A stretch of 32,000 nt of DNA from assembly GCF_000019345.1 (NCBI RefSeq), contig NC_010503.1:150001-182000 (forward strand), in the 5' to 3' direction. The DNA comes from Ureaplasma parvum serovar 3 str. ATCC 27815 (lineage in GTDB: Bacteria > Bacillota_I > Bacilli_A > Mycoplasmatales > Mycoplasmoidaceae). The translations under genes and the position numbers were made by a program. Positions 22,250-25,455 of this stretch are shown in pieces (the first letter of the stretch is position 1; every line of letters starts with the position of its first letter). The notes beneath the pieces were generated by a model. That model saw only the letters and a program-made list of their open reading frames with translations, searched no databases and had not been told where the DNA came from.

Positions 22250-23056
22250 CTAGTTTGCCTCTAAATTTAAATTTATTTGTTGTAAAGAATTATTTAATTT
22301 TTTAGCCTTTTTTTGATTTTTAACTTCAAGTTTTGCAAGTTTATAAGCTTGTTTTTCTTCAGCACTTTTTTTAGGTGAAAATACAGTCGCTAGTTTAACA
22401 ACAATAATTATAAAAGTAATCATTTGTGGCATCATAAATACAATAAATACTCAATTATATGCAATATAATTTGGATTTTGATATTGTATAATGGTTGATA
22501 ATTTTGCAAGAGATTTTATTCCTTGAGCTGCTAATACAGGATTTTGTGAGTTAGCTAATTGTGAGAATAATTGATTATATTTGTAAAATCAACTATTTTC
22601 TCAATCACTTAATACTTTTGTTACAAATCCTCATGTTCCATTATGATTAATAAATTTACTATGCGCATGATAATGAAGAGCTTCATATAATTTTGGATCG
22701 TTATTTTTATTAGTATTATTAATTAATGACTCCATTGTTTTTCCATTAATCAATTGATCGTGAATTGTTTTATACAATTCTTGATAATTAGCGTGTTGAT
22801 CATAACCTAATCATGACATTAAAGAATGATTATCACCACTAACATCAGCTACTTTACCAATAATTTGACCTTGATCATTAACTAATGCTCTTGCATTTTC
22901 AAAACCTTCATTTAATAAACCAACCATTGTAAACGCTATTGTTAATCCTACTATAAATATAACTAATGCTGCTATAAATCAAGGCGTAAAGACTTGTTTA
23001 ATTTTTGGAAGTTTGCTGAATTCAGCAAAGCTTTTATTCATTTTAATTTGATTCAT
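22250..23056 (-). CDS. Two-TM membrane protein of unknown function inserted between atpA and atpG (268 aa)
   Basis: I translated this by hand from ATG 23054-23056, whose A is shared with the atpA TAA. It runs through 7 in-frame TGAs to TAG at 22250-22252, which lies 1 nt before the atpG ATG. TM1 is [24 protein letters not shown] soluble region of about 170 aa follows, then TM2 [25 protein letters not shown] and a Lys-rich tail. The track shows only the last 61 aa. Confidence 0.75.
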
Positions 23057-25455
23057 TATTTAAGATAAGTGAAACCACTTGGTCCTTTATTCATATTAAA
23101 ACTTGCTAAATCTTTTGGCTTACGATATTTATAAACTTTAGAAGCTAATAAAGCATGTGCTTCTTTGTGTGAGTTAAAATATTCTAAATATTCTTTACGT
23201 GATGAAATTACTGAACTTGAACGATATTTATTTCAAGAAGTGTTTACTGAATTAACATCAATCTTTAATAAATCAAATTCACCAACAACTTTTTGTACTG
23301 GACTTGTGACATAAACTAATACTTTTTCAACTGGATATTTAGGTGTTACTTTAAAGAAAACAACACTTTTAGCATTATCAAACAATTGTTCTGCTTCATT
23401 TGATGAAATTGAAATCATAATTGTTTGTTTTTCAACTTCAGAAACAGCTGAATCTGAGAAGACTCAATTACGATTCTCGCGTTCATCTAGAATTGCTTCA
23501 TCATGCTCAATTTCAGCAACTGGTACTAAGACTTCTAAATCATCATCTTTAGATTCATCATTATCTACCTCACCGCTTTGTTCAACGGTTTCATAAATTG
23601 AATATTCATGGTTTGTATCTTCTAAAACTTGTTGACCTTCGATTTTTTCTTGGTTTTCAGCTATTTCAAATTCATGATGTTCACAGATAATTTTTTCTGG
23701 CTCAACTTCTTCAAAAATATGATTTTCTTCCATTTTATTAGTTTCAAGAATTTCTTGTGGTTCAACGAAATCTTGAACTTTTTCTTCTATTTGAACAGCT
23801 TCAGATGTTTCTGTTGTAGGTTTTAAACTAACTTCTTCATTAATAAAATTAAAATCATTTTCACCATCAACAACAATTGATTCATTCTCATTAAAGAATT
23901 TATCAAAGGCTGTTTGTTCAGCTTCTTCACAAGGTTTAAAATCTTGTGAATTATTTAAGAAACTGTTAATTGCTTTTTGTATAGCACATCTAAATGCTGG
24001 GGTATTTTCTTTATCAAAAGCTTTCTTATCTTCAAGATCAGCACGTAGTTTTGTTCCTTTAAAGTAATTTAATAAGTACTCTTTAAAATCTTGAATACGT
24101 TCTACTGGAACTTGAGGAATAAGTTTTTCTTTAACGGTAAACAAAATGATCGCTTCATCAGTTTGATTATAAGGTTTATTAGGAGCTTGCTTAATAACAG
24201 CCATAACTGCTTTACCAAGTTTTAGAATACGTTTAGTTTCATCATCCAAATCACTACCGAATTGACTAAATGCTTCAAGTTCGCGATAGTTAGCTAATTC
24301 TAATTTTAATGATGCTCCAGTTTGTTTAACTGATTTAATTTGTGCAGCAGAACCTACCCGACTAACTGATTGCCCTGCATCAATTGCAGGACGTTGACCA
24401 GCATTAAATAATGATGTCATCATAAAAATTTGCCCATCAGTAATTGAAATTACATTTGTTGGAATATAAGCTGAAATATCACCAGCTTGTGTTTCAATAA
24501 TTGGTAAAGCAGTAATAGATCCTGCCCCTAATTCATCTTTTAGTTTGCATGCACGTTCTAATAAACGACTGTGTAAGTAAAAAACATCTCCAGGATATGC
24601 TTCACGACCAGGCGGACGACGTAATAATAAGGATAAAGTACGATAAGCAATAGCATGTTTGCTTAGATCATCATAAACAATTAAAACATCTTTTCCTTGA
24701 TGCATTCACTCTTCAGCAATTGTTACTCCTGTAAAGGGAGCAATATATTGCAAAGCAGGTAATTCTGAAGCATTAGCTGTAACAACAGTTGTATATTCCA
24801 TTGCTCCATGAGCTTCAAGTTCACGAACAACATTTGCGATTGTTGAGTTTTTTTGACCAATTGCTACATAAACACAATTTACATTACGGCCTTTTTGATT
24901 AATAATAGCATCAATTGCAATTGTTGTTTTTCCAGTCTGTCGGTCACCAATAATTAATTCTCTTTGGCCCTTACCAATTGGGAACATTGCATCAATTGAT
25001 AAAATTCCGGTTTCAAGTGGTTGATGAACAGATTTACGGTCCATAACACCAGGTGCAATTTTTTCAATTACACTAAATTTATTTGCAACAATATTACCTT
25101 TATTATCAACTGCCTTACCTAAAGCGTCAACAACACGACCTAACATTACATCCCCAACAGGAACTTCAACAATTCTTTTTGTACGATAAACACGATCGCC
25201 TTCTTTAATATTTGAATAATCACCTAAAAGAACAACACCAACAGCATCTTCTTCTAGGTTTAAAGCCATTCCTTCAACACCATTTTCAAAACGTACAATT
25301 TCATTTAACATGACATTATCAAGGCCATCAACCAATACAATTCCATCACCTAACGAAATTACATTGCCGACCTCTAAGGTTAAAGCTTTTTCAGAAAATT
25401 TCTTAATTTGTGATTTTATATCACTAATTAATGAATGATTTTTATTATCTGTCAT
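23056..25455 (-). CDS. atpA: F1 ATP synthase alpha subunit fused to a C-terminal acidic linker and an ASCH-like domain (799 aa)
   Basis: Track fragments 24706..25455, 23464..24705 and 23233..23418 share one frame, linked by TGA at 24706, 23464 and 23233. I checked the segment from 23466 down to the stop for TAA/TAG. The alpha core has Walker [56 protein letters not shown] and [23 protein letters not shown], ending near residue 502. Residues about 503-679 are D/E-rich. Residues about 680-799 resemble the COG4933-type ASCH domain. The stop is TAA at 23056-23058. Confidence 0.85.

Follow-up and report, generated by a model that had tools for sequence, protein, structure and literature searches.

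The closest described relative of the domain treated here is ZmASCH, the ASCH protein of Zymomonas mobilis (ZMO0922), a monomeric, Mg-dependent nuclease of single-stranded RNA (ssRNA) in which R32, Q127, and S128 have been modeled at the RNA and the substitution S128A weakens binding (PMC5615036). Nineteen ASCH proteins, ZmASCH included, have been reported to remove N4-acetylcytidine (ac4C) from tRNA, a reaction for which the Lys and the Glu (or Thr) of the family octapeptide are described as essential (bioRxiv 10.64898/2026.02.27.708502). One F1 ATP synthase alpha subunit (ATPF1A) of Ureaplasma parvum has been mentioned in passing as a protein that "has a long (~250aa) C-terminal extension" (PMC4154653). 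We have analyzed this extension in a 32,000-nucleotide stretch of U. parvum serovar 3 strain ATCC 27815 (contig NC_010503.1, positions 150,001 to 182,000 of the forward strand; "the window" below). The alpha gene, atpA, very probably encodes a genuine fusion whose tail is a degenerate ASCH module; related modules are found at the C-termini of ribosomal and membrane proteins, and all of those compared lack the signature Glu and Arg of the family. An initial annotation, made from the sequence of the window, had noted the tail and knew of no described ATP synthase with such an appendage, a statement that the earlier mention of the extension (PMC4154653) corrects.

The extended alpha subunit and its ASCH module

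The atpA frame runs on the minus strand from ATG 25455 to TAA 23058-23056 and contains 799 codons, interrupted only by TGA (codons 250, 664, and 741), just as first described; every peptide string quoted in the initial annotation was found in the translation. G+C content in 1-kb windows of the stretch is about 21-36%, mostly 21-30%, and TGA is read as Trp; a list of open reading frames (ORFs) called with translation table 11 splits atpA at exactly its TGA codons. Codon 741 falls on the family-invariant Trp of the ASCH barrel (W73 of ZmASCH; numbering here and below after PMC5615036), a residue that all 39 mollicute modules share with 123 of the 126 stand-alone ASCH relatives; TGA is therefore Trp, and the tail is read in the atpA frame. 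For this comparison, and for those that follow, the positions of ZmASCH residues 11-133 were recovered from HMMER alignments. The parts of the gene are as follows.

23056-25455, minus strand: whole atpA ORF, 799 codons, TAA stop at 23056-23058 included (code 4)
23950-25455, minus strand: canonical F1 alpha core, residues 1-502 (beta-barrel, nucleotide-binding, and C-terminal helical domains; Pfam)
23875-23949, minus strand: proximal segment, residues 503-527, with a semi-conserved "..C.E.EQTAYD.FF" in most aligned Ureaplasma alphas
23521-23874, minus strand: disordered acidic tether, residues 528-645
23425-23520, minus strand: pre-motif, residues 646-677 (alignment of modules, structure prediction)
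23464-23466, minus strand: TGA codon 664, Trp, within the pre-motif region
23059-23424, minus strand: ASCH (PUA-like) beta-barrel core, residues 678-799, ending GPSGFTYLK (profile, fold)
23233-23235, minus strand: TGA codon 741, the family-invariant Trp of the barrel

The first 502 residues are an F1 ATP synthase alpha subunit by domain content, by the P-loop GDRQTGKT, and by position in the atp operon; the Pfam domains PF02874 (residues 28-92), PF00006 (150-365, E 4e-82), and PF00306 (372-494) all score above their cut-offs. Because these domains end at residue 494, residues 503-799 (window 23949-23059) are extra, in agreement with the 297 or so additional residues estimated at the outset. 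The acidic character of the linker was likewise upheld: residues 503-649 carry a net charge of -38 and are 31% Asp plus Glu.

Shuffled versions of the linker DNA are free of TAA and TAG in only 2 of 200,000 cases, and the other two frames of the extension contain 16 and 25 stops, which excludes a chance ORF. The 799-residue protein is identical to ATPA_UREPA (AAF30538.1, U. parvum) and is seen on 145 contigs, which excludes an assembly error; both candidates were rejected on these grounds. Comparison of the atpA loci of related Mollicutes, a check envisaged in the initial annotation, found the extension in all sampled Ureaplasma alphas (730-799 amino acids [aa]). The U. urealyticum protein (797 aa) is 90% identical to that of U. 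parvum; alphas of 730-778 aa from U. canigenitalium, U. zalophigenitalium, U. miroungigenitalium, ES3154, and several further relatives cover the whole query, and U. diversum has the same extension in a partial ORF cut by a contig end. Most other Mycoplasmataceae alphas, at 513-550 aa, cover only about 62% of the query. The fusion is thus real and old, and it was never lost within Ureaplasma.

The anatomy of the extension was derived from an alignment of 14 extended alphas (A2) and two AlphaFold 2 (AF2) runs. The full-length model is poor (predicted local distance difference test score [pLDDT] 57.5, with 14 sequences in the alignment) and was used only for the profile of order and disorder in the extension. 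It predicts a helix at residues 511-522 of the proximal segment (pLDDT about 66-73) and disorder in the tether (pLDDT about 25 over residues 524-643), which varies across species in sequence and in length (75-291 aa); no tandem repeats were found in the linker. The pre-motif (pLDDT 82-90) consists of a helix (653-660) with a nearly invariant R659-E660, a short strand (665-666), and a spacer, and is predicted to pack onto the barrel. Together they form a folded, basic module of about 150 residues (17 kDa, pI about 9.5), modeled by AF2 with a pLDDT of 94 and a predicted TM-score of 0.87. In the one close pair compared, U. zalophigenitalium and U. miroungigenitalium, the alpha core has a ratio of nonsynonymous to synonymous substitutions (dN/dS) of 0.028; the value of the module is 0.035 and that of the linker 0.61. 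The module is thus under strong purifying selection and is as constrained as the alpha core, whereas the tether is not and needs only to stay in frame.

The initial annotation had assigned the tail to the ASCH/COG4933 type, and this was borne out by a profile match, the fold, and named relatives. The Pfam ASCH family was of no help: a Pfam search of tail and linker gave no ASCH hit (E <= 1), and PF04266 matched 0/21 modules at the same threshold, so the proposed check with that profile came out negative. Assignment to the family is based instead on a profile match, on the fold, and on transitive evidence. A profile of 21 modules (A1) searched against the sequences of the Protein Data Bank (PDB) found ZmASCH at E 4.6e-14. 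The predicted structure of the tail, as had been expected of it, is a PUA-like ASCH barrel that superposes on ZmASCH; the best Foldseek matches are ZmASCH entries 5Y6C, 5GUS, and 5GUQ (E 1e-10, TM-score 0.75-0.79, root-mean-square deviation 1.9 Å over 130 columns), followed by TTHA0113, AF2351, and the ASCH domain of TRIP4, and then by more distant ASCH, EVE, and YTH folds.

A full HMMER scan was the search that revealed the family. A phmmer search with the tail against 1.84 billion representatives returned 804 homologues at E <= 1e-3. The majority stand alone, are about 125 aa long, come from Clostridia and other groups, and are annotated as "ASCH domain-containing protein" or "predicted transcriptional regulator." Several of the stand-alone homologues exceed the Pfam ASCH gathering score of 21.2 bits (P0137, 32.3; P0138, 24.1; P0141, 23.5). 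A word-indexed homologue search with the tail recovered only a fragment of the same protein, and one with profile A1 found mostly fusions to bS20. In NCBIfam, the tail matches positions 185-311 of NF008917 (PRK12279; 150.9 bits, E 4.8e-44), a profile for a uL22 fusion protein; the full-length cut-off of that family (526 bits) is not reached by alpha, which has no L22 part and matches with its C-terminal domain only.

The modules differ from their stand-alone relatives at the residues by which the family is recognized. The counts for the octapeptide and the C-terminal PQS motif are these.

G25 (octapeptide): stand-alone 109/126; modules 0/39
K27 (octapeptide): stand-alone 121/126; modules 35/39
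E30 (octapeptide): stand-alone 122/126; modules 0/39, with L/I/F/V instead
R32 (octapeptide): stand-alone 123/126; modules 0/39, with Y/F/L/M instead
Q127 (PQS motif): stand-alone 123/126; modules S in 36/39
S128 (PQS motif): stand-alone 100/126; modules G in 37/39

Thus, the modules lack the octapeptide GxKxxExR apart from its Lys (it reads N694-A-K696-S-V-V699-F-F701 in U. parvum alpha), and in place of PQS[FY]xY[LM] they read PSGFxYLK. They keep S13, F31, P36, Y47, T49, G57, W73, Y90, and the frame P..F.Y.L. Judged from these substitutions, the module is a derived form with a more hydrophobic and aromatic cleft, and most probably a pseudo-enzyme. Of the link to RNA and ac4C processing drawn in the initial annotation, the family assignment stands; an enzymatic role of the YqfB or ZmASCH kind is unlikely, because the signature Glu and Arg are absent in 39/39.

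A cassette on several hosts and the setting of atpA

The best matches to the tail are C-terminal fusions and not stand-alone proteins. The shared unit, referred to here as the cassette, comprises the "RE" helix pre-motif and the ASCH barrel, ends in ...GPSGFxYLK, and is C-terminal. Its hosts are the ribosomal proteins uL22 (RL22_UREPA, 311 aa), bS20 (252-258 aa), uS3 (387-413 aa), and bS16 (272-477 aa); F1 alpha; F1 gamma (601 aa); and two small proteins with N-terminal membrane helices, the C-termini of which would be cytoplasmic by the positive-inside rule. The cassette is confined to the Ureaplasma/Malacoplasma branch of the Mollicutes, where it has been copied to the 3' ends of different genes. 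The initial annotation had weighed a genuine fusion against capture of a downstream gene through stop-codon loss; the former is supported, and a separate gene captured once is ruled out by recurrence of the cassette on at least seven hosts.

A census with the pattern [KR]GP[SA]GFxYLK, taking one genome per species, located 22 loci. Per genome or bin, the cassette was found on these hosts.

Five Ureaplasma species in the scan: alpha and uL22
Malacoplasma muris: bS20 and uL22
Uncultured Mycoplasma bin O21: adjacent rplV and rpsC
"Ureaplasma sp. MAG075": alpha (946 aa), bS16, and a membrane protein

Wherever more than one type of locus was sampled, in four genomes or bins, there are at least two copies, one or more of them ribosomal. 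Paralogous cassettes inside one genome are 55-78% identical. In O21, the rplV and rpsC copies share 81% DNA identity from the pre-motif to the stop, an interval that delimits the copied unit. The cassettes of these two O21 genes (L006 1215-2234 and 2254-3453) are 78% identical in amino acids; their last 20 residues are identical, and only the last two 10-codon windows reach 93% nucleotide identity. The pattern suggests recent copying, or gene conversion between the neighboring 3' ends.

In a neighbor-joining tree, a rough distance tree in which deep nodes are indicative only, the mollicute cassettes are monophyletic with respect to stand-alone ASCH proteins. Within Ureaplasma, the cassettes of alpha fall into one clade and those of uL22 into another, which makes each fusion older than the genus. 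The MAG075 alpha cassette groups with the membrane-protein cassette of the same bin, which suggests that alpha there acquired or re-acquired the cassette independently. The ASCH core is basic on every host. The charge of the linker follows the host, from -10 to -46 on alpha and gamma and mostly positive on ribosomal proteins; this match suggests that the linker has adapted to its site of attachment.

Other appendages were observed on F1 subunits of this clade. The gamma fusion (P0125, 601 aa, from a metagenome contig) carries the cassette on an acidic linker of 166 residues, 316 appended residues in all. Gamma normally has its C-terminal end within the alpha3beta3 cavity, close to the crown, which makes this appendage topologically puzzling. 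The alpha C-terminus is a hot spot for appendages (P0014, P0019, P0071-P0099, and P0121), among them Lys/Ala/Pro-rich tails (proteins of 574-581 aa) and, in P0121 (654 aa), a Cys-rich tail that resembles a zinc ribbon. In another alpha, 922 aa long and related to that of U. diversum, the linker holds a Cys/His-rich insert (..ECCGKEDCCSETESHSHAQEHKCTHHSC..). The Cys/His-rich appendages might bind metal; Ureaplasma urease needs nickel.

The version on uL22 bears the NCBI label "L22/unknown domain fusion protein," and this label has spread to ordinary stand-alone ASCH proteins. Because the PRK12279 name was propagated, the ZmASCH paper calls ASCH domains homologous to "ribosomal proteins" (PMC5615036). 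The ASCH identity of the uL22 tail explains this annotation problem. Among the papers searched, none links ASCH to Ureaplasma or to an L22 fusion, and none names the Ureaplasma tails ASCH or describes the spread of the cassette or the systematic loss of the signature. The abstract of the 2006 paper that defined the superfamily reportedly mentions a possible role in the regulation of prokaryotic translation, and the L22 fusion may already have been noticed there. The apparently new elements are the occurrence of the cassette on ribosomal, F1, and membrane proteins, its presence in two or more copies, at least one ribosomal, in the four genomes or bins named above, the loss of Glu and Arg in all 39, and PSG in place of PQS, that is, a putative derived ASCH subfamily in new architectures.

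The atp operon of U. parvum is arranged atpB-E-F-H-(delta')-A-(ORF268)-G-D-C, with an additional gene on either side of atpA.

25458-25757, minus strand: extra 99-aa ORF between atpH and atpA, the C-terminal half of delta (OSCP; PF00213 positions 93-168 of 172)
22250-23056, minus strand: 268-aa membrane protein gene between atpA and atpG, its ATG overlapping the atpA stop (TAATG)

The atpH gene beside the half-delta ORF encodes a full delta subunit of 179 aa, and duplication of ATPF1D within the locus has been reported for U. parvum (PMC4154653). A half-delta ORF of 92-102 aa occupies this position in four further Ureaplasma species, and bin MAG075 has no called delta other than an OSCP-like gene of 96 aa. 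Membrane helices lie at both ends of the 268-aa protein, which also has a Lys-rich tail and matches no Pfam or NCBIfam family. Homologues of 274-295 aa with 40-47% identity occupy the same place in other Ureaplasma, and MAG075 has at this position a 262-aa gene without detectable similarity. The 268-aa protein may be an extra component of the ATP synthase.

The boundary between core and extension was also searched for signals. The junction shows no excess of promoter-like sites (5, as against 6.3 expected by chance), both terminator-like hairpins of the junction region lie on the non-coding strand, and Rfam has no family match in the region. An 11-bp inverted repeat (TTCACAAGGTTTAAAATCTTGTGAA on the plus strand, window 23926-23950) lies exactly at the junction (codons 503-511); on the coding strand no U-run follows it, other species do not conserve its sequence, and its position is probably due to chance. 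A palindrome (TTTGCTGAATTCAGCAAA, window 23012-23029) inside the start of the 268-aa gene scored as terminator-like on the plus strand, where no gene ends at it. Elsewhere in the window are RNA genes for the end of 23S rRNA (1-88), 5S rRNA (153-256), tRNA-Gly(GCC) (1614-1687), and the small SRP RNA (2497-2594); ORFs called at 126-371 overlap the 5S gene and are spurious.

Possible roles of the tethered module

The reading that we favor, and to which we give an even chance, is that of a module without catalytic activity that serves for binding and is tethered to abundant machines. F1 alpha has its C-terminus at the end of F1 nearest the membrane. On the ATP synthase, three modules per F1 would therefore hang from the membrane-proximal rim on flexible acidic tethers of about 120 residues; the placement "on top of F1" suggested in the initial annotation is wrong and is ruled out by the established F1 structure. 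On ribosomes, the module would hang from solvent-exposed protein tails. The attachment points there are the tunnel-exit side of the 50S subunit for uL22, the mRNA entry on the 30S head for uS3, and the 30S body for bS16 and bS20. Because the attachment points lack a common geometry, tethering in high copy to a machine probably matters, and not precise position. Most likely, the module would bind a common ligand on both machines: RNA, the ribosome, or another copy of the module; the ligand might also be something else that fits the remodeled pocket. The proximal helix of alpha may additionally act on F1 itself.

In Ureaplasma, a shared ligand would connect the translation apparatus with the ATP synthase or membrane. 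Such a link between ribosome-borne and ATP-synthase- or membrane-borne copies is attractive but doubtful as matters stand. Equally tentative is the further idea that the cassette is a dedicated tethering device of minimal cells, whose copies bind each other or a common RNA. Such a device would couple ribosomes to the energy-producing membrane complex and, where both copies are ribosomal, the 30S to the 50S subunit and ribosome to ribosome; acidic or basic tethers matched to the host would tune the interaction.

Several points weigh against a non-catalytic binding module. Homotypic binding has no precedent in the family, because ZmASCH is a monomer (PMC5615036), and RNA binding in the ancestral mode is doubtful, because R32, Q127, and S128, the proposed RNA contacts, are lost. 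The remodeled pocket could still be catalytic on another substrate, and the module may be released by proteolysis. The census of copies, moreover, rests on one narrow peptide pattern and on partial assemblies.

It is conceivable, though we consider it unlikely, that the cassette is an expression hitch-hiker: a small gene that spread by duplication onto the 3' ends of genes with high and constitutive expression where few promoters are available, that has the same function wherever it is attached or after proteolytic release, and for which the ATP synthase is a convenient carrier. The hosts are indeed among the most abundant proteins (ribosome and F1), the copied unit is sharply bounded, one genome carries it on adjacent rplV and rpsC with high nucleotide identity, the linkers are long, disordered, and poorly conserved, and alpha seems to have gained the module more than once. 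However, both Ureaplasma fusions, that of alpha and that of uL22, arose before the genus radiated and have persisted ever since; the charge of the linker fits the host, which suggests that the linker has adapted to where it is attached; there is no evident conserved cleavage site; and according to the model, the pre-motif folds onto the domain.

An unlikely alternative is that the extension mainly regulates the ATP synthase, with the ASCH module as sensor or ballast, in the manner of the mycobacterial alpha extension, in which residues 533-545 dock into gamma and deletion stimulates ATPase activity (PMC8698299). A semi-conserved helix (511-522) follows the alpha core directly in most Ureaplasma alphas, the atp operon is otherwise remodeled by the extra half-delta and the extra membrane protein, and Ureaplasma depends on its ATP synthase for urea-driven ATP synthesis (textbook knowledge). 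Regulation would, however, leave the ribosomal and membrane-protein copies unexplained; because the cassette also occurs on four ribosomal proteins and on membrane proteins, the core function of the module is not specific to the ATP synthase. The tether evolves almost neutrally, and no similarity to the mycobacterial segment is evident, although no comparison was run. The idea is compatible with a tethered binding module and is plausible for the proximal helix.

An active RNA enzyme, either an ac4C deacetylase of tRNA or rRNA or an ssRNA ribonuclease like ZmASCH, concentrated at ribosomes and only incidentally at the ATP synthase, is distinctly improbable. The fold and family are those of ZmASCH, which cleaves ssRNA (PMC5615036), and removal of ac4C from tRNA is the activity reported for the 19 ASCH proteins mentioned above. 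The equivalents of Lys27, Tyr47, Thr49, and Tyr90 are kept, the surface is basic, and fusion to ribosomal proteins would fit an RNA substrate. Against this, the Glu of the dyad reported to be essential is L/I/F/V in all 39 modules, Arg32, Gln127, and Ser128 are replaced in essentially all modules and kept by the stand-alone relatives, and an RNA substrate would not obviously account for fusions to alpha, gamma, or membrane proteins.

An artefact, in which a stop or frameshift was overlooked or ATG 23418 opens a downstream gene of its own, is effectively refuted already: Met680 does open the first barrel strand and the default table-11 ORF list does break the gene at TGA codons, but the identical ORF recurs on 145 contigs and in many species, the linker almost never stays open on shuffling, TGA codon 741 encodes an invariant Trp, and promoter-like sites do not exceed chance. 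A separate start at ATG 23418 is conceivable but improbable, for it would drop the conserved, folded pre-motif upstream of M680, and the bases immediately before that ATG show no evident sequence of the Shine-Dalgarno type.

The distribution of the module has several implications. Ureaplasma makes nearly all of its ATP with the ATP synthase, and the F1 head of this enzyme bears three copies of a domain type otherwise tied to RNA and ribosome biology. The fusions amount to "Rosetta stone" evidence that prokaryotic ASCH proteins of the ZmASCH type belong in the neighborhood of the ribosome, and possibly that a link from the ribosome to the ATP synthase or membrane has been selected in some genome-reduced bacteria. 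The modules also form a natural series of putative pseudo-enzymes (catalytic Glu in 0/39, as against 122/126) that could be used to separate ASCH binding from catalysis.

Comparison with known systems

The Ureaplasma uL22 fusion (NF008917/PRK12279, RL22_UREPA) is a close counterpart of the alpha extension. It carries the same cassette, with the end GPSGFQYLK and about 50-55% identity to the alpha module, in the same genomes; its linker is 49 aa long and basic, whereas that of alpha is long and acidic.

ZmASCH (PDB 5GUQ/5GUS) shares with the module its fold, its profile homology, and a basic surface, as well as S13, K27, F31, P36, Y47, T49, G57, W73, Y..YF, and the C-terminal P..F.YL. ZmASCH and the COG4933-type relatives (about 125-147 aa) are stand-alone proteins with intact GxKxxExR and PQS; in contrast, the Ureaplasma module is a C-terminal fusion with an extra N-terminal helix/strand pre-motif and without G25, E30, R32, Q127, and S128, and the activity of the ZmASCH type has probably been lost. 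The N4-acetylcytidine amidohydrolases YqfB and TthASCH are, like the module, barrels of the ASCH superfamily, and the fold match of YqfB is weak (Foldseek E 0.2). These enzymes use the octapeptide Lys with a Thr or Glu, whereas the module is hydrophobic at the Glu position in every case.

ASCH barrels are also found next to ribosomes in TRIP4/ASC-1 (of the ASCC complex) and EOLA1. Foldseek lists TRIP4 in complex with ASCC3 and with double-stranded DNA (TM-score 0.41-0.49, about 10% identity); EOLA1 is reported to interact with mitochondrial 12S rRNA and EF-Tu, as cited in a preprint (bioRxiv 10.64898/2026.02.27.708502). Both keep the GKER octapeptide, and neither is fused to a ribosomal protein or an ATP synthase subunit.

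The mycobacterial alpha extension is likewise a lineage-specific C-terminal appendage of F1 alpha, in an organism that must avoid wasteful ATP hydrolysis (PMC8698299). It is a peptide of about 35 residues that docks into gamma, whereas the Ureaplasma extension has 297 residues and consists of a tether and a globular domain that is found on ribosomes too.

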